NCBI GenBank assembly: GCA_964016885.1
Contig: OZ024762.1
Coordinates: forward strand, 12,090,001-12,154,000
DNA: 64,000 bases
From: Eledone cirrhosa
Lineage: Eukaryota
Reading direction: 5' to 3'
Part shown: positions 2,937 to 50,340 of the stretch, in pieces
How the letters are laid out: every line of letters starts with the position of its first letter
Position numbering within the stretch: position 1 is the first letter of the stretch
Position numbers and translations under genes: made by a program
The notes under the pieces: model-generated
What the model saw: only the letters and a program-made list of their open reading frames with translations
Told to the model about the DNA's origin: nothing
The model's database searches: none

Positions 2937-2978
<42 letters not shown>

Positions 2979-3000
2979 ATATATATAATATATATATATA

Positions 3001-3049
<49 letters not shown>

Positions 3050-3921: not shown

Positions 3922-5408
3922 TATATAAAATGTCTGACTTACTGTAGTCATTTTGGAATAGCATTTAGAAAAAAACATGTTTTAGGAATATTTAATTTAG
4001 TAGATTTAAAAATACTGTGTAAAAATAACAGATTTCATATTTTAACCTTAGTTTCTCCTCTCAAATGTTTTGTGACTGTCTCCCCCATTTCTTTTCAGGG
4101 ATATATTTCAGTAACCCCTTCCCCCATCCACCCATCATATTGCAAAGGTAATGAAAAATAACTCTCTGAAAATTAAATTAGAATGTGGTTTATTTATATT
4201 TTATTAAAGCATTTATTAACCCCTTAGCATTTAAACCGGCCGAATCCAGCCAGAATTCTCTCACCTCTTTCAGTTCACACTGGCTGGAACCAGGTTATGG
4301 CATTGTTCTCAAAATAAATAACATCAAAATCTCATAGATTCCATATTATGTTAGATAAAGTCTTTACCGTGAAAATACAATAGTATATATAGAGTAATGT
4401 AAATGTTATGTGAGGTAAAGCCTTTACTGTGAAAATACAATAGTATATATAGAATAATGTAAATGTTATGTGAGATATTATGTGAGGTAAAGCCTTTACC
4501 GTGAAAATACAATAGTATATATAGAGTAATGTAAATGTTATGTGAGGTAAAGCCTTTACTGTGGAAATACAATAGTATATATAGAGTAATATAAATGTTA
4601 TGTGAGGTAAAGCCTTTACTGTGAAAATACAATATTATATATAGAGTAATATAAATGTTATGTGAGATATTATGCGAGGTAAAGCCTTTACTGTGAAAAT
4701 ACAATAGTATATATAGAGTAATGTAAATGTTATTCAGGTATTATGTGAGGTAAAGCCTTTACTGTGAAAATGCAATAGTATATATAGAGTAATGTAAATG
4801 TTATGTGAGGTATTATGTGAGATAAAGCCTTTACTGTGAAAATGCAATAGTATATATAGAGTAATGTAAATGTTATGTGAGGTAAAGTAGCAGCTCTACC
4901 TGGATTGACTCTCTGATCTCTGAACTACAAATCTGTTCAATGATTCTTTATTGAGACATTCTAACCACATATCGGAGTTGTGATCTCTCAATTCAGAGAA
5001 GAAGCAGCTCTACCTGGAATGACTCTTTAATCTTCGAGCTACATACTTTATGGGATAGACATAACTATTAAATTACCATCAATCTTGAAAAAATTAATCA
5101 GTAAATCAATCGACATTGCCGGTTTGTTTTGCCCATAAAAAACTCTTTCTTCCCAAAATATTTAATATTTTCTTCTCTGTTATTTTCTGATGTTTTTAAT
5201 AATTATATTTAATAATTTTAATAATTAACTAATTTTAACCATTTTTTGTGTTTTTAGTGGTTCACAATGGAGTTGGTGGTATGTGGTTGTGTTTGGAATT
5301 ACACCCTGACTGAAAAATATAGTTTATTAATATCGTAAGTTGATATATCTATTTTTATCTCTTTATCAAAAAAAAAAAAAAAAACACCTGACCCCCCCCC
5401 CCCCCCCC

Positions 5409-5907: not shown

Positions 5908-5968
<61 letters not shown>

Positions 5969-5971
<3 letters not shown>

Positions 5972-6156
5972 AAAAAGAAGTTGAAAATGCAATTGGTGTG
6001 TTTAAAAAGGTTTATTTACAATAATTTAAAACTTTACTGGTTTCACAAGTTTCATGGTTTTCAAAAGTTAGAGATGGAGAGATGTGTGGCTATGCCAACT
6101 TGTAACTATTTTTCCTATATTTATATGTGGAATATATTAAATAAAAACCTTTACTT

Positions 6157-14364: not shown

Positions 14365-15215
14365 CGTTCCATAGAGTGTGTAGCTCGGAGATCAGAGAGT
14401 CACTCCAGGTAGAGCTGCTACTTCTCCGAATTGAGAGACCACAGCTTCGATACTTTGGACATGTGGTTAGAATATCTCAGGAAAGAATCGCTGGACAAAT
14501 TTGTACCCCAGAGATCAGAGAGTCACTCCAGGTAGAGCAGCTACTACTCTGAATTGAGAGATCACAGCTCTGATACTATGGACATGTGGTTAGAATGTCT
14601 CAGGAAAGAATCGCTGGACAAATTTGTACCCCAGAGATCAGAGAGTCACTCCAGGTAGAGCAGCTACTACTCTGAATTGAGAGATCACAGCTCTGATACT
14701 ATGGACATGTGGTTAGAATGTCTCAGGAAAGAATCGCTGGACAAATTTGTACCCCAGAGATCAGAGAGTCACTCCAGGTAGAGCAGCTACTACTCTGAAT
14801 TGAGAGATCACAGCTCTGATACTATGGACATGTGGTTAGAATGTCTCAGGAAAGAATCGCTGGACAAATTTGTACCCCAGAGATCAGAGATCAGAGAGTC
14901 ACTCCAGGTAGAGCAGCTACTATTCTGAATTGAGAGATCACAGCTCCAATATTATGGACATGTGGTTAGAATGTCTCAGGAAAGAATCGCTGGACAGATT
15001 TTATGGGCAAGACCAACTGGCAGGAGACCCAGGGGTAGATCCTGAGCAAGATGTTTGGATAACATCCATGAGCTTGGCTGGTCACACTTGGGGATCCAGC
15101 TGGATCAGTTGAAGATGGTTGCTTCTGACAGGACCTGTTGGAGGGAGTTTGAGGTCTCTGACCCTACCAGGATCTTCTCAGGAATAATTTGGAGAAGAAG
15201 AAAAAGATGGATGTA
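14365..15215 (+). mobile_element. Expander/Rex3-like RTE LINE 3' fragment with internal 123-bp tandem array
   Basis: Encodes IERSQL.YYGHVVRMSQERIAGQILWARPTGRRPRGR...DNIHELGWSHLGIQLDQL and has a GAAGAA-type tail. About 5 copies of a 123-bp unit. Confidence 0.85.
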
Positions 15216-19744: not shown

Positions 19745-21000
19745 TGAGTAGCTTAGAGATGAGAGACTCATACCAGGTAGAGCTGGTATTTCACTGAACT
19801 GAGAGATCACAGCTCTGATACTATGGACATGTGGTTAAAATGTCTAAGGAAAAACCCTCTGAATTGAGAGATCACAGCTCTGATACTATGGGCATGTGGT
19901 TAGAATGTCTCAGGAAAGAATCACTGGACAGATTTGTAGCTCAGAGATTAGAGAGTCACTCCAGTTAGAGCCACTACTTCTCCGAATTGAGAAAAGAAAG
20001 CTCTGATACTATGGACATGTGGTTAGAATGTCTGAGGAAAGAATCTTTGGATTGAGAGATCACAGCTCCGATACTACAGACATGTGGTTAGAATGTCTCA
20101 GGAAAGAATCTCTGAATTAAGGGATCTCAGCTCTGATACTACAGACATGTGCTTAGAATGTCTCAGGAAAGAATCTCTGAATTGAGAGACCACAGATCTG
20201 ATACTATAGACATGTGGTTAGAATGTCTCAGGAAAGAATCTCTGAATTAAGGGATCTCAGCTCTGATACTACAGACATGTGCTTAGAATGTCTCAGGAAA
20301 GAATCTCTGAATTGAGAGATTACAGCTCTGATACTACAGACATGTGGTTAGAATGACTCAGGAAAGAATCTCTGAATTGAGAGATCACAGCTCTGATACT
20401 ACAGACATGTGGTTAGAATGACTCAGGAAAGAATCTCTGAATTAAGAGATCTCAGCTCTGATACTACAGACATGTGGTTAGAATGTCTCAGGAAAGAATC
20501 TCTGAATTGAGAGATCACAGCTCTGATACTACAGACATGTGGTTAGAATGTCTCAGGAAAAAATCTCTGAATTAAGAGATCTCAGCTCTGATACTACAGA
20601 CATGTGGTTAGAATGACTCAGGAAAGAATCTCTGAATTAAGAGATCTCAGCTCTGATACTACAGACATGTGGTTAGAATGACTCAGGAAAGAATCTCTGA
20701 ATTGAGAGATTACAGCTCTGATACTACAGACATGTGGTTAGAATGACTCAGGAAAGAATCTCTGAATTGAGAGATCACAGCTCTGATACTACAGACATGT
20801 GGTTAGAATGTCTCAGGAAAGAATCACTGTCAGATTTTACATGCAAAAACCAACTGGCAGGAGACCCAGGGGTAGGCCCCGAGTAAAGATGGTTGGATAA
20901 CATCCATGAGCTTGGTTGGTCTTACTTGGGGATACAGCCGGATCAGTTGGAGAAGGTTGCTTCTAAGAGGATCTTCTTGAGGAAGTATTTGAGGACTCTG
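19745..21000 (+). mobile_element. Expander/Rex3-like LINE fragment with 65-bp tandem array
   Basis: Same family as 14365-15215. The unit gaattgagagatcacagctctgatactacagacatgtggttagaatgtctcaggaaagaatctct is repeated about 12 times. Confidence 0.85.
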
Positions 21001-24044: not shown

Positions 24045-24502
24045 TGTTATCCAACCATTTTGCTCGAGGTCTACCCCTGTGTCTCCAGCCAGTTGGTTTT
24101 TCCCCCCTTAAAATCTGTCGAGTGATTCTTTCCTGAGATATTCTAACCACATGTCCATAGTATCAGAACTGTGATCTCTCAATTCAGAGAAATACTGGCT
24201 CTACCTGGAGTGACTCTCTGATCTCCTGAGACATTCTAACTACATGTCCATAGTATCAGAGCTGTGATCTCTCAATCCAGTGATTCTTTCCTGAGACATT
24301 CTAACTACATGTTCATAGTATCAGAGCTGTGATCTCTCAATCCAGTGATTCTTTCCTGAGACATTCTAACTACATGTCCATAGTATCAGAGCTGTGATCT
24401 CTCAATCCAGTGATTCTTTCCTGAGACATTCTAACTACATGTCCATAGTATCAGAGCTGTGGTCCTTCAATTCGGAGAAGCAGCGGTTCTACCTGGAGCG
24501 AC
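24045..24502 (-). mobile_element. Expander/Rex3-like LINE fragment with 65-bp tandem units
   Basis: Reverse complement of the same family. Confidence 0.8.
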
Positions 24503-25210: not shown

Positions 25211-25915
25211 TGAAAAAAAAAAATGAAATTGATAGCTCACCCGCTGGTAGGTTTAGCTGGCTTCTTTATGAGGTTGTATTTCATAGGAGGTTTCTAAGGT
25301 GTTTTAATAACGGGGGCCTCTGAACTATCATGTTTTGGTTGTTACAGCTTAATCCTCTGCTAGGTTTTGTTGGCCTCCTATCGGTTGCATGTCACAGGAG
25401 GTTCCTGGGGGTGTTTCAATGTTAGAATTAGATATAAGCTTGGTTTAAGCCCAACATTGTATATAGAAGTAAGTACTGATTCAGTTTTAACAGTCCCTGA
25501 GCAGTGGTGAGTAGTAGTAGAAGTGAAGAAGGCAGAGGAGGAGGGTTCCATGTGAAACAAGGCTCAAACTAGAAGGGTGCATTTTATCATGACACCAGCA
25601 CTACCACTTTACAGGGTGTATTGGGTGTATTTTATCATAGCACCAGCACTACCACTTTACAGAGTGTACTGGGTGCGTATTATTGTGGCACTAATAATAT
25701 TGCTTTACAGAGTGTACTGGGTGTATCATGTACTCATAATATTCAGTTCTCATGTTCTTATAAACAGTGCCGTACACTATTGAACTGTATTGATTGATAG
25801 CTGGCTTAATTTTCAATTGACCGTGTTTCCCTGTCTGTAAGAAAGTACAGACTGCTGCTGTTGGCAGATACAGATCACTGCACTGAGGTGGTAAACACAC
25901 ATCAATATATAAGAT

Positions 25916-26180
25916 CATCATCATCTTTATGTCCGATTTCCCACACTAGCATGGGTTGGACAGGTCTATCTCAGCACAACATCTCTCCAGCTCTTACATG
26001 AGTCTCAGTGATTTGAAGTCAGCTCTCATCACCTCCACCCCAGGGTTTTCTCAGTCTACCTCTACTACGACTTCCTTCCACTGGCATTTCCCGGCACTTC
26101 TTCACCCATTGGTCATCGTCCACACACATCACATGTCCGTACCAATGTAGTCATCTCCCCTGCACACCACCCCAGATTCC
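25916..26180 (-). mobile_element. Degenerate RTE LINE 3' fragment
   Basis: Homologous to 6263-6543 (acatgtccgtaccaa encodes WYGHV on the minus strand). Confidence 0.75.
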
Positions 26181-26186
26181 TATATA

Positions 26187-26499
26187 TCATCATCATCATC
26201 ATCATCATTTCATTTTACGTCCGCTTTTCCCTGCTTGCAAGGGTGGGACAGGAACTGATTCTGGCTTGATTTCTACAGCTGGATGCCCTTCCTAACACCA
26301 ACCTCATTTACAGTGAGTGCTGGGTGCTTTTTTTGCCGTGGCACCTCCACGACCACTTTGCAGTGGAATGATAGGGACCCCAGTCCCTATCATCTCATTT
26401 CTACAGCTGAGTAGACTGGAGCAATGTGAAATAAAGTGTCTTGCTCAAGGAGACGAGACATCACCCGGTCTGAGAATTGAACTCACAACCTTTCGATTG

Positions 26500-26502
<3 letters not shown>
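26187..26502 (-). mobile_element. SINE family A
   Basis: Near-identical to 6800-7100. Confidence 0.8.
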
Positions 26503-26534
<32 letters not shown>

Positions 26535-26536
<2 letters not shown>

Positions 26537-26695
26537 CAGAAGGGATATTCAATTTATTGGTTATGTCAAATATTTATAAAACATTTTGTATTTTATCTGA
26601 TGATAGCGTACCGATGTTGTCTTGTACCCTTGAAATATATATAATAGAATAAATATGGTTTTATAAATATAGTTTCCATTTATTTAATATCATTG
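26535..26695 (+). mobile_element. Penelope-like pseudo-LTR remnant
   Basis: Homologous to 9087-9290 and contains a hammerhead. Confidence 0.6.
26589..26651 (+). ncRNA. Type I hammerhead ribozyme in Penelope-like remnant (degenerate stem II)
   Basis: tattttat-CTGATGA-tagcgtac...gtaccctt-GAAA-tatata-TA-atagaata. It has the same downstream flank (aaatatggttttataaatatagtttccattt) as the 9189 copy. Confidence 0.7.
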
Positions 26696-27512
26696 TATAT
26701 ATATATATATAACGAAGGAAATGTGGTAAGGAACCAGATGGACCATAACGCACCAAAGTACTCAATACTTAGGTTAGTAGAGTGGGTAATAGGAACAAGT
26801 ATGACCCCGAGCTCTGCCGTTGGGGTCATACTTGTTCCTATATATATATATTACTGAGAGTTATATGAATATATGTGGCCTAGCGCATCACATGTCCGTA
26901 ACAATGAAGTCATCTCCCCTGCACACCACCTCGGATTCCTCTCTCTCTGTATATCATATATCACATAGAGTTATATGAATATATGTGGCCTTGTGGTTAG
27001 GGTGTTGGACTAACAGCGATCTTAATGTCGTTGGTTCAATTCCTGGACTAGGTAGTGTGTTGTGTTCTTGAGCAAAATGTTATAATTATTTTTACGTTAC
27101 TCCAGTAAACCCAGCTGAAAATTAGTACCACCAGTAGCTGGGGTTAACTGTGATGGACATGTGTCCTTTCTAGAAGGAGTTTTGTTCTTTTAGTCAATTA
27201 ACAGTTAGGAAACCACGGTAAACACCGGCTAGATGAGTTTCTTGGCAATGAGGTCGACTTTAGCATTTTTTTATATACAGGGAGTCCCCTCCTCCCCTCC
27301 CAAAAATGTATACACATTTCAACAACATTCTAATCAATATATGTATACATTTTTGGGGGACATCCTGTGTGTATATATATATATGTGTGTGTGTGTGTGT
27401 GAAAGTGTGAGAGAGAGGCAGAGCTTGGATGAGTTGAAGGAGAAGCTGGGTTTAAAAGGAATTCGAGGTGGTGTGTAGGAGAGAAGATTGTTGGTTTGGA
27501 TATGGGTGGACG

Positions 27513-28310
27513 GAGTGCTTTTCATTGTGACACCAGCACTATCACTTTACAGAGAGGACTGGGTGCTTTTCATTGTGACACCAGCACTATCACTTTACAG
27601 AGAGGACTGGGTGCTTTTCATTGTGACACCAGCACTACCACTTTACAGAGAGGACTGGGTGCTTTTCATTGTGACACCAGCACTATCACTTTACAGAGAG
27701 GACTGGGTGCTTTTCATTGTGACACCAACACTACCACATTACAGAGAGGACTAGGTGCTTTTCATTGTGACACCAGCACTATCACTTTACAGAGAGGACT
27801 GGGTGCTTTTCATTGTGACACCAGCACTACCACTTTACAGGGTGGACTGGTGTGACACCAGCACTACCACTTTACAGAGAGGACTGGGTGCTTTTCATTG
27901 TGACACCAGCACTACCACTTTACAGGGTGGACTGGTGTGACACCAGCACTACCACTTTACAGAGAGGACTGAGTGCTTTTCATTGTGACACCAGCACTAC
28001 TACTTTACAGAGAGGACTGGGTGCTTTTTATTGTGACACCAGCACTACCACTTTACAGAGAGGACTGGGTGCTTTTCATTGTGACACCAGCACTACCACT
28101 TTACAGGGTGGACTGGGTGCTTTTCATTGTGACACCAACACTACCACTTTACAGAGAGGACTGGGTGCTTTTCATTGTGACACCAGCACTACCACTTTAC
28201 AGAGAGGACTAGGTGCTTTTCACTGTGACACCAGCACTACCACTTTACAGAGAGGACTGGGTGCTTTTCATCGTGACTCGAGCACTACCACTTTACAGGG
28301 TGGACTGGGT
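27513..28310. repeat. 48-bp minisatellite derived from a SINE/RTE 3' segment
   Basis: Unit gtgcttttcattgtgacaccagcactaccactttacagagaggactgg. Confidence 0.9.
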
Positions 28311-28510: not shown

Positions 28511-29239
28511 AGACTGTGTGTGTGAGAGAGAGACTTTGTGTCTACATGTGTGTGTGTGTGAGAGAGACTGTGTGTGTGTATACCTGTGCAAGTGTGTGTG
28601 TGTGAGTGTATTAGTGTGTATATGTTCAACACATATACACCAATAGCTGTCATCTTTTTAAGCCAGAAAATAGTAATGTGAGGCTGGGTTATGACACAAG
28701 CTTGGAACACACACACACATACACCAACACCCTAGCTATCATCTCTTAGTTATGAAATAGCAACATGTAGCCATAGTTATGATATAAAACACACAACACA
28801 CACACAGCTAGTTACCATTTCTAAGTTATGAAATAGCTCATGTAGGAGCAGCGTTTATACCACAAGCCTGGACAAGTCGTGAATAATTCTTGGGTTTCAA
28901 AACTTCTAGAAGTTGTTCTCTCAACATGTGTCCATGTTCTCCAGGGCTTTTTTTTAAACCTTTACCATTTACATTACTCTATATATACTATTGTATTTTC
29001 ACAGTAAAGGCTTTACTTCACATAACATTTACATTACTCTATATATACTATTGTATTTTCACGGTAAAGACTTTACCTCACATAATATCTCACATAACAT
29101 TTACATTACTCTATATATACTATTGTATTTTCACGGTAAAGACTTTACCTCACATAATATCTCACATAACATTTACATTACTCTATATATACAATTGTAT
29201 TTTCACGGTAAAGACTTTACCTCACATAATATCTTACTG

Positions 29240-37405: not shown

Positions 37406-39739
37406 TTCGTTGTTGTTGCTTAAAACTGATGAACGTCCACATTCCATTGACATTTCATTGAGTGCACAGTGCATTCTCAACCATCATCATCATCATCGTC
37501 GTCGTCATGGTTGCTTCGCCTTCGTCAGCATCATCACCATTAGTTGCACCATCATCACTACCACCACCTTCACCACCATATTCATCAACACCATCATCGC
37601 TACCTCCTCTTCCACCACCACACCACACCACCATCATCATCACTACACCCCGCTCCCCCCACTATCGTCATCATCACCATTATCACTATTTCCACCACCA
37701 CCACCATCACTACAAATACGACCTTCACCACCACCACCACCACCATCACCATCAGTAGCACAATTTCTTGTTTTGAAGTCTTGCTTTATGTCTGCTACAT
37801 TTGTCATTAGTGATGATGATGACGTTAATTAATGCTAATGATAATGATGTTGACAATAATTATAATGAAGCTACTGTCTTTCTCCCTTTGTTAGACATTC
37901 CGGCACCCAACTTCTATCTTCAATCAAAGACATTCTCTCTCTTTCTCTCCCTCATTAATTTTTTTCCCGCTCAGATTTTAATGGAGGGAGGAAGAAAGGT
38001 TCTTCTCGTTCCATTTATTTTCATTCATTTATTTATTATTATAAATTGGCAGTAATCGGTGGAGCGTCGGACCCAATGGCTTGCGGCGTTTAGTTACGTG
38101 TGAATAACGCTCTGAGTTCAAATCTCGCCGTAGTCAACATTAAATATAAGCTATCATCCTTCTGGGGTCGATAAAATAATACTAAAGTACTGTTAAAGTA
38201 CTTAAGGGGTTTCGTTAAATCAACTCTGCCCTTCCCCTAAATTTGCTGACTGTGTGCCTAAATTAGAAATCTGATTACTACTACTACTACTACTACTACT
38301 ATTTAGGGTGATAGATCAACATAACTAACACCGTTTTGAGTTCAAACCCTAAACGAGTTAAACTTTACCTTTACATTTCATCCCATACACATAGGTACAA
38401 GTCATGACTACGTGGTTAGGGGTTCGGTCCCACTGCGCGGCCCCTCGAGCCAGTGTTGGATTTAGGACAAATGAGACCCGAAACACTTGAAAAATTCACC
38501 GTAAAAAAACCTTTTGGCAGGAAGATAACGGCTAGATCCTGGCTAACGGGGCCCTGTGTTTTAGCACACCTAAGCACAATGGTAAATCTGGTCTGTCTTC
38601 TATAATGGCTTCGGGTTGACCAAACATAACACCGTGGAATTTGGTAGACTGAGATTGCTGTCTGGTCTCTGTCTGTGTTTACGTCTGTGGTTTATTTCAC
38701 CCTAACTTTGAATTGAAAACAATAAGTATAGGGATCGATGTGATCAACTAATTCAATGTTGTGCCCAAGCCTCGCCTCAATATAAATAAAAGTATGTGTG
38801 TGTGTGTGAGTGTGTATACACGCACACTTTCCTCCACTTGTTTGTTCGCAAGTCTATCGTTACACACACAAGACACCATACATCAAAATCTGCCAGTTAC
38901 TCTGTATCTTCTCATCTCTTTATTTTGACCACTCTAAATACCACCTATCTCTCTCTCTGTCTCTATCACTCACACTCTCTCTATCACTCACTCTCTGTCT
39001 CTGTCACTCACTCTCTCTCTATCACTCACTCTCTCTCTCACTCACTCTCTGTCTCTGTCACTCACTCACTCTCTCTGTCTCTCTATCACTCACTCTCTCT
39101 CCCTCTATCACTCACTCTCTCTCTCCCTCTCTATCACTCACACTCTCTCTCTCTACTACTACTCTTTCTCTGTCTCTCTACCACTCTTTCTCTCTCTCTC
39201 TCTATCCTTCTCTACTACTCTCTCTCTCTATCACTCTCCCAATTACCCCCCCCCCCCCAATTTAACCCCAACTACTTTGGTTAATCAGCAACAATTCTTA
39301 AACATCCAACTTGTAAGGCCGTGTAATTAATATTGCCCTATGTTGCTGTATATACACACAGTTATACACACACACACATACATATATATATACTCACATA
39401 CATACACATAGACATAAATATATACACATAGACATATATATACTTACACACATACACACATATATATATATACTCACACACACATCCATACACAGACACA
39501 TATATATACACATACACATACACATAGACATATATACACTCACACACACCCCAAACATATATACTCACACACACATCCATACACAGACACAGACACACAA
39601 AATGTCTGAAGATGAAATAATATATTTGTGTCATAATTTTTCTGTCATCTCAACATCTTGTTTCTTTTCTTCTGTATTCCTCTCTGTTATGGCTGCCATG
39701 TTGACAATCCCGTCCCCACCACCAACACCTCCTCCTGCC

Positions 39740-40615
39740 ACCGCCATCACCATTGTGACCACCACCACCACCACCAGCACCTCCCCCACTGTCACAGTTG
39801 TGACCAACACCACCATACCACATCCAACACCTCTCCCACTGCCACCACTACCACCAACACCTCCCCCACTGTCACCACCATCACTATTGTGACCAACACC
39901 TCCACCAGCACCTCCCCCACTGTCACAGTTATGACCAACACCACCATACCACATCCAACATCTCTCCCACTACCACCAACACCTCCCCCACTGTCACCAC
40001 CATCACCATTGTGACCAACACCACCATACCACCACCAACACCTCCACCAGCACCTCCCCCACTGTCACAGTTGTGACCAACACCACCATACCACATCCAA
40101 CACCTCCCCCACTGTCACCACTACCACCAACACCTCCCCCACTGTCACCACTACCACCAACACCTCCCCCACTGTCACCACTACCACCAACACCTCCCCC
40201 ACTGTCACCACTACCACCAACACCTCCCCCACTGTCACCACCATCACTATTGTGACCAACACCACCATACCACCACACCACCACCACCAGCACCTCCCCC
40301 ACTGTCACAGTTGTGACCAACACCACCATACCACATCCAACACCTCCCCCACTGTCACCACTACCACCAACACCTCCCCCACTGTCACCACTACCACCAA
40401 CACCTCCCCCACTGTCACCACCATCACTATTGTGACCAACACCACCATACCACCACACCACCACCAACACCTCCACCAGCACCTCCCCCACTGTCACAGT
40501 TGTGACCAACACCACCATACCACATCCAACACCTCCCCCACTGTCACAGTTGTGACCAACACCACCATACCACATCCAACACCTCCCCCACTGTCACCAC
40601 TACCACTACCACCCC
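39740..40615. repeat. C/A-rich complex minisatellite (30-bp core ccaacacctcccccactgtcaccactacca)
   Basis: Tandem units read directly. Confidence 0.85.
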
Positions 40616-41406
40616 CTCACTCAGTGTCCAGTTAGATGGTAAGTCTTTCTTCCCAGTAGCCAGTCCAATTTGATGGTCTGTCTTCCCAGTAACCAATGTC
40701 CAGTTGGTCAGTCTCCCCAGTGACCAGTGTCCAGTCTCTGTTGAACAGATGTAAAACTCTTACAAGGTAGTTTATCTTCCCTGTGTTGTACCGTCAAGAT
40801 TGGTGATAGCATTGTAGTGGAGAACAGCCAGCAACACCTGCTGCACCAGCCTCTTTACCTCCATACCCCTCACTAGATGGTATATCTAACCACTCCACCA
40901 ACCAACCAACCAACCACTCCACCAACCAACCAACCAACCAACCAACCAACCATCCACCATCCAACCCCTGCCCCAACCAACCATCCACCATCCAACCCCC
41001 TCCCTCAACCAACCATCCACTATCCAACCCCCTCCCCCAACCAACCATCCACCAACCAACCATCCACCATCCAACCACTCCACCAAAGAAACAACAAAGA
41101 TCAGCCATGCCTTTATTTCTGTATTCAAACTTCACTGGTTCAGTGTGTGTATGTGTGTATGTTTATATATGTGGAGATGTGTGTGTGTATGTGTGTGTAC
41201 ACCTCTCAGCTACTCTCTATCTCTCTCCCTATCCACTCTGTCTCTATCTTACCAAATTGACCCCCCCCCCTCCTCTAAATCTCAGAAGCAGGGCTTCACT
41301 TGTTATCTCTGCCTTTCAGCTATCTCTCCTCTCTCTCTCTGCCTTTCAGCTCTCTCTTTCTCTCTCTGCCTTTCAGCTCTCTCTTTCTCTCTCTGCCTTT
41401 CAGCTA

Positions 41407-41437
<31 letters not shown>

Positions 41438-42568
41438 CTCTACAGAAGCAATGTTTTCATTTATGTGTGTCTCTGAACTACTGTCTTCCAAACTCTTTCT
41501 CTCTCCCTCTCCCTCTCCCTCTCCCTAGTCACCATGACTCCCTCTAACCCAGCTACCACCCCACCCCACACCACCCACACTGATAAAGAGAGAGAGAGAT
41601 GTGTGTGTATGAGAGAGAGGTGTGTAAGACAGATGTGAAAGAGAGAGGGATGTGTGAGAGAGAGAGAGAGAGGTGTATAAGACAGATGTGAAAGAGAGGG
41701 ATGTGTGTGTATGAGAGAGAGGTGTGTAAGACAGATGTGAAAGAGAGAGGGATATGTGAGAGAGAGGTGTATAAGACAGATGTGAAAGAGAGAGGGATAT
41801 GTGAGATAGAGAGAGAAGTGTGTAAGACAGAGATGTGAAAGAGAGAGAGAAGTGTGTAAGACAGAGATGTGAAAGAGAGAGAGAGGTGTGTAAGACAGAG
41901 ATGTGAAAGAGGGAGGGATATGTGAGAGAGAGAGAGAGGTGTGTAAGACAGATGTGAAAGAGAGAGGGATATGTGAGATAGAGAGAGAAGTGTGTAAGAC
42001 AGAGATGTGAAAGAGAGAGAGAAGTGTGTAAGACAGAGATGTGAAAGAGAGAGAGAGGTGTGTAAGACAGAGATGTGTGAGAGAGAGAGAGGTGTGTAAG
42101 ACAGATGTGAAAGAGAGAGGGATATGTGAGATAGAGAGAGATGTGACTGCCCTCCTGTGTACCATTTCTCCATCATTGCCAGTAATCAATGTAGCAATAT
42201 GGTGGTTTCTATCTCTCCTCCTCTTTTTCTTGTGTCACACCACCACCATCACCACTACCATTACCACCACCACCTTCACCACTACCATTACCATTACCAC
42301 CACCACTACCATTACCACCACCATCACTACTACCATTACCACCAACACCACCACCACTACCATTACCACAGCCTTCACTATCATCATCACCACTACCATT
42401 ACCACCATCACCACTACCACCACCACTACTGCTACCACTACCACCACCACTACTACCACCACCACCACTACCACCACCACCACTACTACACTAATCAATA
42501 GTTTTATGTTAAACTAAACTTTACACCTAATAACCATCTCCTCATTTAGATATGTCTGTGTCTGTGTG

Positions 42569-42600
<32 letters not shown>

Positions 42601-43254
42601 CTCACAAGACTGACACACCTACATACGTATATATCAGACAGCCACACACACACACACCAGACAGCCACACACATCACAGCCACAGAATCATACACACACA
42701 TGTACAGACAGGCATCAGACAGCCACACACATACATACATAACACACTGCCACACACTTGTAAATGTATAATTTTGGTATACCTGTAATGCCTTGTGGCA
42801 TATTATGTAATGCTGAATCTCCCTGAGAACTATGTTATCAGTGCATGTCTCTAGGGAATGCTTGGACACTTGACCTTTTCATGACCGTATTTCTCATAAA
42901 ACACACTCTATTTTAATTAGTTAATGAAGAATTTTGAGGGATTTACTAAAATTATTAATTAATTCATTACTAAGATAGTAACTTAATGTAGGGTTCTTAT
43001 ATAAAATTATGTTGAATTGGAAACCTTTAAAATGGATGGTTTTATTTCATAGAACCAGAGCTGGTTAAGAGTGCATGTGAATATGGAATGCCCTGTCATT
43101 TACACATGAAATAAATATTACAAGCAGAGCGTTCTGCTGATTGAATCAACTGGAACACTCACCATCAGAAATGATAGAGCCAACAACAGATTCATACACG
43201 ATGATGGAAAAGAAATTGAAAATGCAACTGGAGTCTTTTAAGAATATTTATTTA

Positions 43255-43298
43255 TTTACTTTACCGGTTTCACAGTTCTTATGATTGTCAAAAGTAAA
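43255..43298 (-). ncRNA. Minimal type I hammerhead-like motif, U3:A8 core variant (left arm of inverted repeat)
   Basis: Exact reverse complement of 43943-43986. Confidence 0.65.
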
Positions 43299-43897
43299 AT
43301 TAAGATGGAGGGATTGTGTTTCTGTTGTGGTGCGTCAAAAGTAAAATTAAGATGGAGGGTTTGTGTTTCTGTTGTGGTGCGTCAAAAGTAAAATTAAGAT
43401 GGAGGGTTTGTGTTTCTGTTGTGGTGCGTCAAAAGTAAAATTAAGATGGAGGGTTTGTGTTTCTGTTGTGGTGCGTCAAAAGTAAAATTAAGATGGAGGG
43501 TTTGTGTTTCTGTTGTGGTGCGTCAAAAGTAAAATTAAGATGGAGGGTTTGTGTTTCTGTTGTGGTGCGTCAAAAGTAAAATTAAGATGGAGGGTTTGTG
43601 TTTCTGTTGTGGTGCGTCAAAAGTAAAATTAAGATGGAGGGTTTGTGTTTCTGTTGTGGTGCGTCAAAAGTAAAATTAAGATGGAGGGTTTGTGTTTCTG
43701 TTGTGGTGCGTCAAAAGTAAAATTAAGATGGAGGGTTTGTGTTTCTGTTGTGGTGCGTCAAAAGTAAAATTAAGATGGAGGGTTTGTGTTTCTGTTGTGG
43801 TGCGTCAAAAGTAAAATTAAGATGGAGGGTTTGTGTTTCTGTTGTGGTGCGTCAAAAGTAAAATTAAGATGGAGGGATTGTGTTTCTGTTGTGGTGC
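43287..43897. repeat. 47-bp tandem repeat, 13 near-identical copies
   Basis: Unit gtcaaaagtaaaattaagatggagggtttgtgtttctgttgtggtgc, with no spacers. Confidence 0.95.
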
Positions 43898-43942
43898 GTC
43901 TTGCATCAAACCACAACAGAAACACAAAGCCTCCATCTTAAT

Positions 43943-43986
43943 TTTACTTTTGACAATCATAAGAACTGTGAAACCGGTAAAGTAAA
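43943..43986 (+). ncRNA. Minimal type I hammerhead-like motif, U3:A8 core variant (right arm of inverted repeat)
   Basis: tttactt-TTGACAA-tcataagaactgt-GAAA-ccgg-TA-aagtaaa. This gives a 7-bp stem I, a palindromic stem III (accggt) and a GUA cleavage site; stem II is weak. Confidence 0.65.
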
Positions 43987-44735
43987 TAAATAAATATTCT
44001 TAAAAGACTCCAGTTTCATTTTTAATTTCTTTTCCTTATACTTACACCCAAGTGGAACATCTCTTTTTAAAAAAAAAAACTCATTTTCTTATACATATAT
44101 ATTGTCTTTTCCCTTCTAGCAGGAGTTAGATAAGTCAGCACAGACCTGGCCAGTACTCAAGTGGATCTACTGACCTTCAGACCAGTTGGTGGCCGGCATC
44201 TCACCCATGTACATTCCTTCGCTCTACCAAGTGTATTTTATTGTGGTACCAGCACTAGTGAGTTTGCTATGTCTTTGACACAACTGAAAAGTTCTCCCAA
44301 CCATTCTTTGGCAGGTTTTCTGTGGCTGGTTACCCTTTCTAGTATTTGTAACTGACATGATAAGTGCACCGAGTATACTTTGTGATTGGAAGGGCATCCC
44401 ATTGTAGAAAACTTGCCAAACAAAGCTTTTCAAGGACTTAGCAGCTGTGGGAATGTCTTGTATTTGAGATGAAGGTCCCTGGTTTGCCAGAGAACATGTT
44501 AGAGTGCATGAATGTAAATAAGTGAGATGGAGGTGCTGGGCCCATCTGGGAGGTCAGTGGCATTGCTTCAGTACTGACATGGTCTGTGGTAGTGGCCATC
44601 TGGGAGGTCAGTGGTAGTCTGACATGGTCAGTGAGACTGTCCAACCTTTTCTAGCAGGGCTGTTTAACCCTTTCATGACTGCAACTCTAATGAATTACAC
44701 TCTATTTTAATTAATTAATGTGTGTGTGTGTGTGC

Positions 44736-44767
<32 letters not shown>

Positions 44768-45887
44768 TTCTATATAGATGTGTGTGTATATATATATGTA
44801 TATACAGGGTGTATACACAATTCAACAACATTCTAATCAAAGTGTGTATACATTTTTCGAGGACGACCTGTATATGTGTGTGTATATAAATGCATGTGTG
44901 TGGATATATGTATATGTGTGTGTGTGTATAAATATATGTATGTGTATATAAATGCACGTGTGGATGTATGTATGTATGTATGTATGTCTGTGTATATAAA
45001 TGTATGTGTGTGTGGATATGTGTATGTGTGTATATATATATATGTGTGTGTGTATAAATGTATGTGTATGTGTGTGGGTGTGTATAAATGGATATATGTA
45101 TGTATATAAATGTATGTGAAGCAAATGACAGTCTTATTGATTACTGTGTGATTGATATTGATTGTAGTATGATCTACAAAGAAATGTCTTTGTTAGATAT
45201 TGAAAGACAATACAACAATTTCCTTTCTAAATGAAGTGAATCACAATCCAACCACGACGTCCACGTCTTCCATATAAGGATGTTGGGATATATTCTGTAG
45301 AAATAGAAAAACTGGGGTAACTGGCAATGGTCCTATGAAAACATCCCCCATTTTAGTCCCTTTGTGACCACATTTCTAATGAAATAGATTGTTTGAATTA
45401 ATTAATGAAGAAGAATTTTGAGGGATTTGTTAAAATTATTAATTATTTCATTACTAAGACTAGCAGAAAAGCCACCCTCCGGATGGTTTTCTGCTAGCAT
45501 GTATAGTGTGTATATTGATATTATACACAAATATATATATACACGTAGATATGATACATCAAATAAAATTGTAATTGACAATATAAACAGAAATTGAACG
45601 AAGACTGCGTTACACTGTCTTGTGTAATCAGTAACGTAATCCATTGATGGAAATATATGACTGTTTATTTAACCCTTTAGCATTTACATTACTCTATATA
45701 TACTATTATATTTTCATGGTAAAGGCTTTACCTCGCATAATTATCTCACATAATATCGAATCTATGAGATTTTGAAAGTATTTATTTTGAGAACAATACC
45801 TTAACATCAGTTTGAGCAACCAGTTACAGCCAGTTTCAACAGAAAGAGGTAGAGAATTCTGGCCGGTTTGAACATTAAAGGGTTAAA

Positions 45888-45950
45888 CGATCGCTAACCG
45901 GAAGTGTTGACATTTGAAAATTTTAAAGAAGTGAATCTTAAAATAAGTAA
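45888..45950 (+). promoter_or_regulatory. Candidate promoter with ETS-family motif ACCGGAAGTG (45897-45906), possible REV3L TSS region
   Basis: Consensus ETS site in a small CpG-containing non-repeat patch about 4.5 kb upstream of the REV3L acceptor. Only weak donor candidates follow. Confidence 0.3.
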
Positions 45951-46497
45951 TAGCATTATTTATATTTAATCAAGAATAACAAAATTTAGTAGATAAATTA
46001 TGTAATATTCATTCATTATTTATTCAAAGTAATCAAACTTATTTTACAAATGGGATAAAAAAATATATTCTGGACTCAGTTCCTGCACTCCTTACTTTAT
46101 TGTAGTTTAGATAGTAACTTAACCCTTTGGCATTTAAACCGGTTGTATCTGGCCAAACTCCTTTCCCTTTTTTGAAACCAGTCATAACTAGCAGCTCACA
46201 CTGATGTTATATCATTCTTAAAATATATAATTACAATATTAAAATCTCGTAGACTCGATATTATGTGAGATAAAACCTTTACCATGAATATACTATAGTA
46301 AATATAAAATAATGTATTGTATCTCACATAATATCGAATCTACAAGATTTTGATGGTGTTATCCATTAACATCAGTATAAGCAGCCAGTTACGGCTGGTT
46401 TGAACAGAAAAGGGTGAGAGAATTCTGGCCGGATATGGCCAGTTTCAATGTTAAAGTAATTTCAAGGAATTTCCTATTCCTATGTCTTGCAACCTCC

Positions 46498-46945
46498 TAG
46501 GTGACCTGCTAAACCTACATAGGGTGTCCTGCTAAACCTACACAGGGTGTCCTGCTAAACCTACACAGGGTGGCCTGCTAAACCTACATAGGGTGGCCTG
46601 CTAAACCTACACAGGTGGCCTGCTAAACCTACATAGGGTGTCCTGCTAAACCTACATAGGTGGCCTGCTAAACCTATATAGGTGGCCTGCTAAACCTACA
46701 TAGGTGGCCTGCTAAACCTACATAGGGTGTCCTGCTAAACCTACATAGGGTGTCCTGCTAAACCTACATAGGGTGTCCTGCTAAACCTACATAGGGTGTC
46801 CTGCTAAACCTACATAGGGTGTCCTGCTAAACCTACATAGGGTGTCCTGCTAAACCTACATAGGTGGCCTGCTAAACCTACACAGGGTGTCCTGCTAAAC
46901 CTACATAGGTGGCCTGCTAAACCTACATAGGGTGGCCTGCTAAAC
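46498..46945. repeat. 22-23-bp minisatellite (cctgctaaacctacatagggtgt)
   Basis: About 19 tandem copies. Confidence 0.9.
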
Positions 46946-47349
46946 AAACAGGTGTAAGCTGTAACCTCTACAACATAATAGTAAAACACCTGTGAATCCT
47001 ATCCAATGCCACCTAGTAGATGATTAGCTAAACTTGCAAAAGTACCAGCTATAAATTTCATTAAAACTTTGTTTTTTCCAGTTTGAGATTAACCCTTTCA
47101 TGACTCTATTTTAATTAATGAAGAATTTCAAGGGATTTACTAAAGTTATTAATTATTTCATTACTAAGATAGTAACTTAATGTAAGGTTCTTATATAAAA
47201 TTATGTTGGCAAATTTTGATTTTAATTGGAAACCTTTAAAATGGGTGGTTTTATTTCATAGAACAAGAGCCAGATTTAGCCGGGTTGATAACTAAAGGGT
47301 TAAAACTGTGCTGCAGATGCTGTTTGCTTAACCCTTTACTATTGACATT

Positions 47350-47425
47350 TGCATGAAAGAAGTGAAGAGCAGACTTGATAATAGCGATTTTTCTGATTTT
47401 CATTCAATTTGTGTGGTAGCCATTT
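47350..47425 (-). pseudogene. Mariner transposase fragment (WVPHEL linker region)
   Basis: Minus strand translates as KWLPHKLNENQKNRYYQVCSSLL, similar to the mariner WVPHELNENQKNRR.EVCSSLL motif. Confidence 0.75.
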
Positions 47426-49769
47426 TTTAACCTTTACCATTACATTACTCAATATTTACTATTGTATTTTCACACAGTAAAGGCCTTACCTCACATAATA
47501 TCTCACATTACTCAATATTTATTATTGTATTTTCACTGTAAAGGCTTTACCTCACATACTATTTACATTACTCTATATATACTATTGTATTTTTCACAGT
47601 AAAGGCTTTACCTCACATAACATTTGCATTACTCTATATATACTATTGTATTTTCATGGTAAACACTTTATTTGACCTAATTATCTCACATAATATCGAA
47701 TCTGCGAGATTTTGATATTATTCATGTTGAGAACAATACCTTAACATCGGTATGAGTGACTGTGAACAGCCGGTTTGAACAGAAAGAGGTGAGAGAATTC
47801 TGACCAGATATGGCTGGTTTAAATGTTAATGGGTTAATATATCATCTTTCCTCAGAGATATGTCTTACCAAACCTGGCCAAAAGTGGCTCTGGTTCTATG
47901 AAATATCGGACAAACTGCCTTGTTGTGGTCAACAGTGGTCAGTATAGTGTAACAGCTGGTTTGAACAGAACGAGGTGAAAGAATCCAGCCCGGTTTAAAT
48001 ACTAAATTGTTAACAAATTTCCTCGGCCCTGTAATATATATATTATTATTTCATTGGCAGTATCGGTAGAGGGTCAGACGCCATGCTTTGACGTATAGAG
48101 TTACGGCCCTTGCCATTCTGAGTTCAAATCCCGCCGAGGTTAACTTTGCATTTCATCCTTATGGGTCGATAAAATAAAGTACCAGTAATGCACTGGGTAA
48201 TTGCTGGCCTTGTGCCAAAAGTAGAAACAATTATTATTTCATAGTTATGAGGCCTTATGTTATTTCAGTGTCAAATTTAAAGGGGAAAACAGGTGTTATA
48301 GAACACTTGTAATAAGAAACAAAAACAGGGAGGGGACAATCAAAATAATATCTTACATGAATATGAAGCCCTATTTTGTGCATTAAATGACTAGAAGGTC
48401 CCTTCTATAAATCTACAGCTGCGCTCTCTTAAGTTTCTGTGGCATATATATATATATATATATATCTGTCCAACCCATGCAACTGTGGAAAAAAAGACTA
48501 GCGCCCGAAACGTTAAGGGTCTTTTCCTACTATATCAAGCGTAAAACTAATATATTTCTTCATTGTACTGTGTTGTTTGCTTTGTTATTTGTTTGACTTT
48601 TGCATATATATATATATACACACACTATATTTCTGTATTTGTTTTACAATATTTTTACCATGATATCACTCCTGAAACTAACCTCGTTTTGTGCTACAAA
48701 ATTGGTTTAAGCTGTTTATATCTATCTTTAGAAAAACCTTCCATCATAATTTTATGTAAGAGCTTCTATTAAATTGAGTTCAAAACATCGGATTAACCCT
48801 TTAACATTTACATTACTCTATATATATACTATTGTATTTTCACAGTAAAGACTTTACCTCACATAATATCTCACATAACATTTACATTACTCTATATATA
48901 CTATTGTTTTTTTCACAGTAAAGGCTTTACCTCACATAATATCTCACATAACATTTACATTACTCTATATATACTATTGTTTTTTTCACAGTAAAGGCTT
49001 TACCTCACATAATATCTCACATAACATTTACATTACTCTATATATACTATTGTTTTTTCACAGTAAAGGCTTTACCTCACATAATATCTCGCATAACATT
49101 TAAATTATTCTATATATACTATTGTATTTTCACAGTAAAGGCCTTTACCTCACATAATATCTCACATAACATTTAAATTATTCTATATATACTATTGTAT
49201 TTTCACAGTAAAGGCTTTACCTCACATAACATTTACATTACTCTATATTTACTATTGTATTTTCCTGGTAAATACTTTATCTCACATAATTTTGAATCTA
49301 TGAGATTTTGATGTTATTTATTTTGAGAACAATACCTTAACATAAGTATGAGCAGCCAGTTATGGCCAGTTTGAGGCAAAGACTTTACCATGGAAATACA
49401 ATAGTAAATATAGAATAATGTGAATGGTAAAGGGTTAAGGTGGTGAAACAGCAGAGTAGAACATCAGGTAGAATTCTTTATGGGATTCATTCCGGATCTC
49501 TGCTCTCTGAGTCCCACCAACGTCAACTTTGCTTTTCATCCTTTCGAGGTCGATAAAAAAAAGTACCAGTCTAATACTGGGGTTGATTCTTCCTCTGTTT
49601 CTCTTTCTCATTTCCTCTCTCTCATTTTCTATCTTTCTCTGAAAGAAATCATCTGTATTCAGGCCTGGAGAGCGATGGGCTGCACCAGGCTTTAAATGCC
49701 CAAGAAATACCGTATCACATTTCAGTGCCCCTAAAAAGGAGTTACGGGACCATACATACATATCAACAC

Positions 49770-50340
49770 TTTAAAACCAACAGTTTTGTATTGTAAAACC
49801 AGGGGTGGTTTCTGGCAGTTTGATATCAAACTGTTTAGAGAATAACTTAAAGGTTCTATAAAATTATGATGGAGAGTTTTCAGATGAATCTAAACAGTTT
49901 AAAACCGACAGTTTTGTATTGTAGAACCAGGGGTGGTTTCAGGCAGTTTGATATAAAACTGTTTAGAGAATAACTTAAAGGTTCTATAAAATTATGATGG
50001 AGAGTTTTCAGATGAATCTAAACAGTTTAAAACCAACAGTTTTGTATTGTAAAACCAGGGGTGGTTTCAGGCAGTTTGATATCAAACTGTTTAGAGAATA
50101 ACTTAAAGGTTCTATAAAATTATGATGGAGAGTTTTCAGATGAACCTAAACAGTTTAAAACCAACAGTTTTGTATTGTAAAACCAGGGGTGGTTTCAGGC
50201 AGTTTGATATCAAACTGTTTAGAGAATAACTTAAAGGTTCTATAAAATTATGATGGAGAGTTTTCAGATGAACCTAAACAGTTTAAAACCAACAGTTTTG
50301 TATTGTAGAACCAGGCATGGTTTCAGGCAGTTTGATATAA
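49770..50340. repeat. 128-bp tandem repeat (~4.5 copies) abutting the REV3L splice acceptor
   Basis: accaggggtggttt recurs at 128-bp spacing. Confidence 0.9.

Follow-up and report, generated by a model that had tools for sequence, protein, structure and literature searches.

The window, a 64,000-nucleotide stretch of Eledone cirrhosa DNA, contains an inverted repeat whose arms (43206–43331 and 43910–44035) are 126 nt each and 97% complementary, with four differences. A 44-nt hammerhead-like motif is letter-identical in the two arms, at 43943–43986 on the plus strand and 43255–43298 on the minus strand, and runs in order through a 7-bp stem I, UUGACAA, 13 nt, GAA, ACCGGU, A17 and stem I'. Both have the layout of a minimal type I hammerhead with a U3:A8 core and a U.U opposition at 10.1:11.1, with cleavage predicted after 43262 in the left motif and after 43979 in the right. 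A tandem array of 13 units of 47 bp (43287–43897) begins inside the left motif. The preliminary description had reported this mirror-image pair of U3:A8 motifs on both strands and the 13 × 47-bp array, and arm comparison and unit alignment bear out both.

Ends shared by a dispersed family divide the locus into two copies in inverted order, each a 5'-truncated pseudo-LTR (pLTR) of a Penelope-like element (PLE). The left copy (43206–43907, minus strand) is split by the array; its 5' end, 43907, sits at the common 5' wall of the family, its 3' end falls 5 nt short of the usual one, and it has no tail. The right copy (43908–44040, plus strand) stops at the family's main 3' end and extends to 44093 through a 53-nt tail (44041–44093, plus strand), after which comes a short TA run. 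The stretch homologous to this tail continues into ORF1 in near-intact sister elements. With a tail on one side only, the outer ends of the insertion are unequal, and no target-site duplication was seen there.

Taken alone, the window is weak evidence for a ribozyme; the strong evidence is genome-wide. Three matches to a loose core pattern occur in the window; shuffles average 0.53, and 2 of 100 reached three, the two arms not being independent of each other. An Rfam search of 38000–50000 gave 56 matches at E≤10, only microRNA-like hairpins below cut-off and none from a hammerhead family. None of the open reading frames near the locus is PLE-like, and a tblastn search of the window with the PLE ORF was empty. 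We rejected the open stretch at about 43110–43240 as a GIY-YIG C-terminus: it extends into the left arm, and tblastn gave no match between it and the PLE ORF. A high-copy repeat (42830–43140) adjoins the element on the left, and contigs originating elsewhere leave out about 300 bp of this repeat. A lone, older relative of the element's pLTR lies at 5910–6090 on the minus strand of the window; it has a recognisable U3:A8 motif at 6035–6064 and ends in a TA run.

The right arm belongs to a dispersed family. Searched against the 3.0-Gb genome it gave 1,850 first-look candidates, the 40 best-scored at about 94–97% identity. Family copies share a common 3' end that runs into (TA)n, with an additional tail (about 50 nt) on some of them, and many stand head to head with an inverted copy; TA-run flanks and the optional tail recur from locus to locus. 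Among 70 window-lineage loci, examined out of 220 exact matches to a 3' anchor, 26 have an adjacent inverted copy and 44 do not. A diverged sister form, its 4-bp stem II perfectly paired, turned up at two loci, and its pattern matches the genome 14,141 times (control, 0). In this sister subfamily an inverted copy lies within 1.5 kb at 24 of 30 loci, many of them the two members of one pair. These counts agree with the earlier statement that PLE pseudo-LTRs can be inverted. A 26-mer about 490 nt upstream of the sister motif has 1,041 matches against 14,141 for the motif, fewer, as expected, because copies are 5'-truncated.

Walking upstream of the sister motif led to genes with reverse transcriptase (RT) and GIY-YIG domains. 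The element L104 (G000:C1:155816000-155823000) reads inverted pLTR, pLTR, ORF1, ORF2 (775 aa), pLTR; L099, L102, L103 and L106 are further young, near-intact sister copies. Same-strand motif pairs 4.7–5.0 kb apart bracket ORFs in L099, L102 and L104, three of the ten long loci fetched, and in L104 and L102 an extra inverted pLTR stands beside the pLTR-ORF1-ORF2-pLTR unit. In Pfam the L104 ORF2 matches GIY-YIG above cut-off (E 4e-6) and RVT_1 just below it (E 1e-6); it has 821 relatives, and those listed mostly combine RT and GIY-YIG domains. Four of the relatives (P0012, P0039, P0042 and P0056) are filed under bacterial symbionts of bivalves and are likely host DNA in those assemblies. Nine other long sister copies are 97–99.8% identical to L104 over aligned ORF stretches, which argues that the sister subfamily is young. 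The overlap of ORF1 and ORF2 in L104 (about 2945–3010) contains the heptamer U UUU UUA, with GC-richer sequence after it; the T run of the heptamer counts six in seven of eight sister copies and seven in L099. We take the heptamer to be a slippery site, and the overlap is likely a -1 ribosomal frameshift signal.

The window's own subfamily is linked to the same kind of gene, in decayed form. The right copy agrees with the pLTR of L104 at 154 of the 191 bases aligned, and three of 30 loci with long 5' extensions match PLE ORF2 by tblastn. The clearest, L327, aligns with ORF2 residues 458–761 at 64–68% identity, with stops, on the motif's strand, with the U.U motif about 570 nt downstream of it; L343 resembles L327, and the match in L322 is weak. 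Across these 30 long loci we found decayed pieces only, and no intact ORF of the window's own subfamily. The PLE pLTR origin proposed in the preliminary description thus stands; the linked RT/GIY-YIG ORF that it said to look for is seen in decayed form in L327 and L343 and intact, as ORF2, in the near-intact sister with its pLTRs. Its label 'young' does not fit: the 40 best-scored relatives match at about 94–97%, and longer copies of the window's subfamily are 77–87% identical to the query copy, which makes this subfamily older than the sister. Residues 645–653 of the L104 ORF2 form a CX4CxxC linker, also present in L327 and L343, and a CX2-5CxxC linker before GIY-YIG marks the Neptune and Nematis PLE types in the accessible part of PMC8557442. 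Judged by sequence, the arms are 5'-truncated pLTRs of an EN+ PLE of Neptune/Nematis type. The frameshifted ORF1 and the TA targets would point to the Neptune clade.

On comparative grounds, we regard the motif as a genuine hammerhead at the level of the family, with stems that covary between families. The window motif carries the minimal type I core at positions 3–9, 12–14, 15.1:16.1 and H17, with a Watson-Crick 3:8 pair (U3:A8). Leaving aside the sister form, the U3:A8 pattern has 254 genome matches against 29 in a reversed-pattern control. Stem II has at least four pairs in 17 and at least three in 21 of 30 such loci fetched, the first pair being forced by the pattern. L289–L316 hold more U3:A8 hammerhead families, with different stems. 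One non-sister family is tied to a PLE ORF at 49–57% identity, on the motif's strand in L296 and through the inverted partner in L289 and L297. Canonical C3:G8 cores number 24,001 (reversed-pattern control, 2,038) and mismatched C3:A8 cores 1,012 (control, 504), the latter without a large family among the 100 matches listed; the patterns differ in tightness.

In 12 motifs, hand-picked with good stems favoured and aligned by MAFFT without structure, 87.8% of cells are paired and both sides have changed in 12 of 13 pairs; slid controls gave 29–42%, and none of 500 shuffles, which ignore relatedness, scored as high. Search patterns fixed the 3:8 pair and, in eight rows, G10.1:C11.1; they placed no constraint on stem I, on stem II pairs 2–4 or on pairing among the inner letters of the palindrome. 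Stem I and the palindromic stem III both covary across families. The reading as a U3:A8 minimal type I hammerhead with a palindromic stem III, its ACCGGU included, therefore survives both the covariation analysis and the genome-wide core search.

Within the window lineage, 76 of 95 anchored segments hold the motif within nine substitutions, the 19 truncated or gapped ones having been dropped. Position 10.1:11.1 in these 76 is U.U in 52, G.U in 18, A-U in three and otherwise in three; N7 is A in 67 and C in three, two of which are the window arms. Exact matches across the genome number 250 for U.U and 713 for G.U. The genome also contains a 310–311-bp tandem family (L140–L167, for example G000:C1:1239857-1244284), each unit of which carries a minimal hammerhead with the canonical CUGAUGA core. 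Its arrays are often in fold-back order, it has variants with A-U or U.U at 10.1:11.1, it makes up a large part of the canonical-core matches listed, and it looks like a non-LTR retrozyme.

The ends of copies suggest what the RT copied. We anchored 81 sister copies downstream of the motif, at 70 loci out of 10,808 matches, pair partners not being independent. Relative to the predicted cut, 36 of the 81 begin at -75 to -60 and 22 at -75 to -70, with none at -91 to -76; nine begin further down and nine pass beyond the 380 nt examined. Of the 81, 68 extend across the predicted cut, and 5' ends cluster about 72 nt upstream, which makes uncut RNA the likely template. Four copies start within 3 nt of the cut, two of them exactly there (Poisson P ~0.03, for one chosen position), so that some cleavage may occur in vivo. 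The window lineage behaves alike: 65 of 70 copies span the cut, one begins within 3 nt of it, and 30 begin at -90 to -65, around a homologous wall at -83.

Read from these DNA ends, the wall would correspond to the 5' end of the RNA. In L104, CCAAT and GCGCGAAA words lie 80–110 nt upstream of the wall, with CACGTG further up in the 3' untranslated part, and older copies carry similar words (L131 and L128 are listed with L104). We take GCGCGAAA to be an E2F-like word and assume that the three words may form a pLTR promoter. A splice acceptor behind the wall was considered and rejected: wall copies have no common upstream exon, and the wall includes the AG. A PLE start site within the upstream pLTR is described in the accessible part of a review (PMC6765202).

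These observations fit a simple insertion history. The element, whose pLTR this sequence is, encodes RT and GIY-YIG; its RNA would start in the pLTR, about 72–83 nt upstream of the hammerhead cut site. By the published in vitro mechanism, the RT would prime at nicked AT-rich DNA and begin inside the RNA at either of two positions downstream of the hammerhead, which account for the main 3' end and the tail; copying the uncut RNA back to its 5' end would leave stubs of about 135–190 nt. Internal RT starts, a tail and uncut RNA as the main template are reported in the portion of PMC11167929 available to us. Two stubs often lie head to head, an observed pattern that yields the mirror image; in the accessible text of PMC8557442 an inverted partner beside PLE copies is the standard pattern. 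On this account the mirror image is a side effect of insertion and no purpose-built ribozyme of two strands. After insertion, the 47-nt segment between two GAC triplets would have been duplicated and expanded.

The 47-bp array is private to this locus and likely a later local stutter. On the left copy's strand each unit starts after a GAC near the copy's 5' end and stops at the GAC made by C7, so that a unit holds the 5' side of stem I and core positions 3–7 only, bounded by a 3-nt GAC microhomology. All 12 genome matches to the array junction fall at the window locus. In reads, a 63-nt contig within the array has a depth of 108 against 9–10 for flanking single-copy contigs (run X1) and 40 against about 3.6 (run X2), which fits about 11–12 units; both runs come from one sample, possibly the assembled one. 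A scan of 228 other loci found no array of three or more copies of a pLTR piece, and two-copy duplications at four. The 11 inner units are identical, where the divergence of the arms would predict about eight differences (P ~3e-4), which argues for growth or homogenisation after insertion. The first and last units have one difference in common, a variant at odds with simple slippage and not explained by it. Local tandem expansion of repeat fragments is common in the window: unrelated minisatellites fill 261 rows. Among them are 65/123-bp minisatellites derived from dispersed-repeat pieces (14388–15001, 19794–20829 and 24224–24461) and a 48-bp one of similar make-up (25575–28310). A second repeat family, with a 72-bp unit, is tandem and inverted at 45685–46404, 1501–1995, 4343–4887, 28966–29234 and 48879–49176.

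Folding predicts that the window hammerhead is probably inert. Its stem II has two pairs and the U.U, with a probability of 0 in monomer and dimer against 0.82–0.85 in the sister; the stable stem II closed by G10.1-C11.1, present in the sister and in other families, is missing, and a competing helix occupies G12 and A13. The active-like fold lies at +6.5 kcal/mol against -6.3. Read-through RNA from either strand forms one long hairpin in which the motif is fully paired to the other arm and stem I has a probability of 0. The ACCGGU palindrome pairs between molecules with a probability above 0.9 in cofolding, and no second motif exists on the same strand for a dimer, since the partner is on the opposite strand and pairs with the motif itself. 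Probable inertness thus follows from the unpredicted stem II, the missing same-strand partner and the burial of the motif. The caution about a weak stem II in the preliminary description was well placed, and its suggestion of a working self-cleaving motif on both strands is not supported, either in read-through or in isolation. The U.U alone need not abolish activity, because the canonical-core 310-bp tandem family has it as well, with four further pairs. In 48 U.U-type motifs the core differs from the majority at 11 of 528 positions against 15 of 288 for N7 and loop II; this may reflect constraint, and is partly a selection effect in a set of mixed subfamilies.

We therefore read the locus, with high confidence, as a fold-back of two PLE pLTR stubs of the older subfamily, each with a U3:A8 hammerhead that is predicted to be inactive, into which a private array grew, likely later and by slippage. 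That the arms are terminal inverted repeats of a MITE or fold-back DNA transposon, with a hammerhead likeness arising by chance in AT-rich DNA, could draw on their near-perfect 126-bp symmetry, the inverted pairs at many loci and the weak window-level chance test. Linkage to the PLE ORF refutes it. Moreover, 44 of 70 loci have no adjacent inverted copy, outer ends are unequal, spacers range from tens of bases to kilobases and contain RT genes, and the stems covary across families, which leaves next to no room for a transposon of this kind. Equally slight is the chance that the array is a non-LTR retrozyme, a tandem, non-autonomous hammerhead RNA element. A tandem array does adjoin hammerhead motifs here, and the same genome holds genuine 310-bp hammerhead arrays, also in fold-back; the 47-nt unit, however, ends at core position 7, so a complete motif is absent from it, the array exists at one locus, and the arms are the pLTR of an ORF-bearing element. 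'Retrozyme-like', as the family had been called, is accordingly not supported.

Two further alternatives accept the PLE origin and have more in their favour. The window hammerhead might still cleave, as a trans dimer through ACCGGU or with help from the element's protein: core letters and the 7-bp stem I are intact, the palindrome cofolds, the U.U version was amplified (250 exact matches), and the Anolis PLE hammerhead, in the accessible part of PMC11167929, needs protein to cleave. We think this improbable given the absent stem II in monomer and dimer, a rival helix that holds G12 and A13, the energy gap and the read-through hairpin; even well-formed minimal hammerheads cleave weakly, according to the available text of PMC4209133. 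Slightly less probable again is an array made during insertion, by a telomerase-related RT recopying 47 nt, rather than by later DNA slippage. The RT finishes at the 5'-most part of the template, which is the segment repeated here; L116 has a two-copy duplication of the 5' segment, and arm divergence could have other causes. Against these points, the arms show 4 differences in 126 positions and the 11 inner units none, nothing comparable turned up in 228 loci, and the window is full of unrelated minisatellites.

Compared with known systems, the stubs and their PLE source are familiar in most respects. In the accessible part of Cervera and De la Pena (PMC4209133), a U3-A8 descriptor run in 2014 gave about 1,300 hits in Schistosoma mansoni, opposite-strand hammerhead pairs 100–700 bp apart were reported, and minimal U3-A8 hammerheads in PLE pLTRs had low dimer activity in vitro. 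The novelty implied for the window by the preliminary description is therefore anticipated there. Like the Cercyon PLEs of S. mansoni described in that text, the present family has a type I minimal motif, a U3-A8 core, a palindromic 15.2–16.2, mostly truncated copies and opposite-strand pairs, about 690 bp apart in the window. Cercyon stem II is given there as 7–8 bp, whereas the sister has 4 bp and the window copy 2 bp plus the U.U; unlike Cercyon, the window family has no extra nucleotide between 9 and 10.1, its subfamily has lost G10.1-C11.1, and the linker of the host element is of Neptune/Nematis type.

The element itself resembles the C-terminal EN+ PLEs Neptune and Nematis, as far as the accessible text of Craig et al. 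2021 (PMC8557442) describes them, in its pLTRs, an inverted 5'-truncated copy at the 5' end, a one-end tail, (TA)n targets, the CX2-5CxxC linker before GIY-YIG and an ORF1 separated by a frameshift. It departs from them in a 53-nt window tail against the 30–40 nt quoted, and in that the window insertion consists of two stubs only, plus a private minisatellite. With Poseidon PAc of Anolis carolinensis (the available portion of Frangieh et al. 2024, PMC11167929) it shares two 3' ends that bracket a tail, a hammerhead upstream of both and the copying of uncut RNA. The PAc hammerhead is C3-G8 and overlaps the ORF start, whereas that of the present family is U3:A8 and about 200 nt upstream of the first ATG of ORF1; no sharp 5' wall is described in that portion, unlike what we see here. 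Non-LTR retrozymes, in the accessible parts of bioRxiv 10.64898/2026.07.22.740005 and PMC7229834, are likewise PLE-derived, hammerhead-bearing and tandem, but have a whole hammerhead per unit, in contrast to the 47-bp unit. No description of the present PLE family was found in the literature searched; the supplements of PMC8557442 and PMC4209133 give lists of PLE families and hammerheads that may include relatives.

The finding in the window is real and ordinary: a PLE end with a hammerhead of an already known kind, one stub among hundreds in its subfamily and among more than 14,000 in the lineage, and by itself of little weight. What the genome supplies is a U3:A8 element that is both young and near-intact, along with sister subfamilies whose stems are weaker and a record of copies made mostly from uncut RNA. 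It also confirms the expectation that CUGANGA-based searches would miss this core, since such scans and Rfam overlook at least 15,000 hammerhead motifs in this genome. A single PLE lineage may thus hold an unpolarised U3:A8 series in which stem II is closed by G-C (14,141), G.U (713) or U.U (250), all of them amplified, and copied as uncut RNA from a fixed site about 72 nt upstream of the cut; we offer this reading tentatively and would sooner doubt it than rely on it. The role of PLE hammerheads is open, according to the accessible parts of PMC8557442 and PMC11167929. Should the U.U form have no catalytic activity, a PLE subfamily has spread with a hammerhead that does not work, and this would be evidence from in vivo that retrotransposition can do without cleavage. 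The young, near-intact sister, with its likely -1 frameshift signal, would be a ready system for asking what the PLE hammerhead is for.
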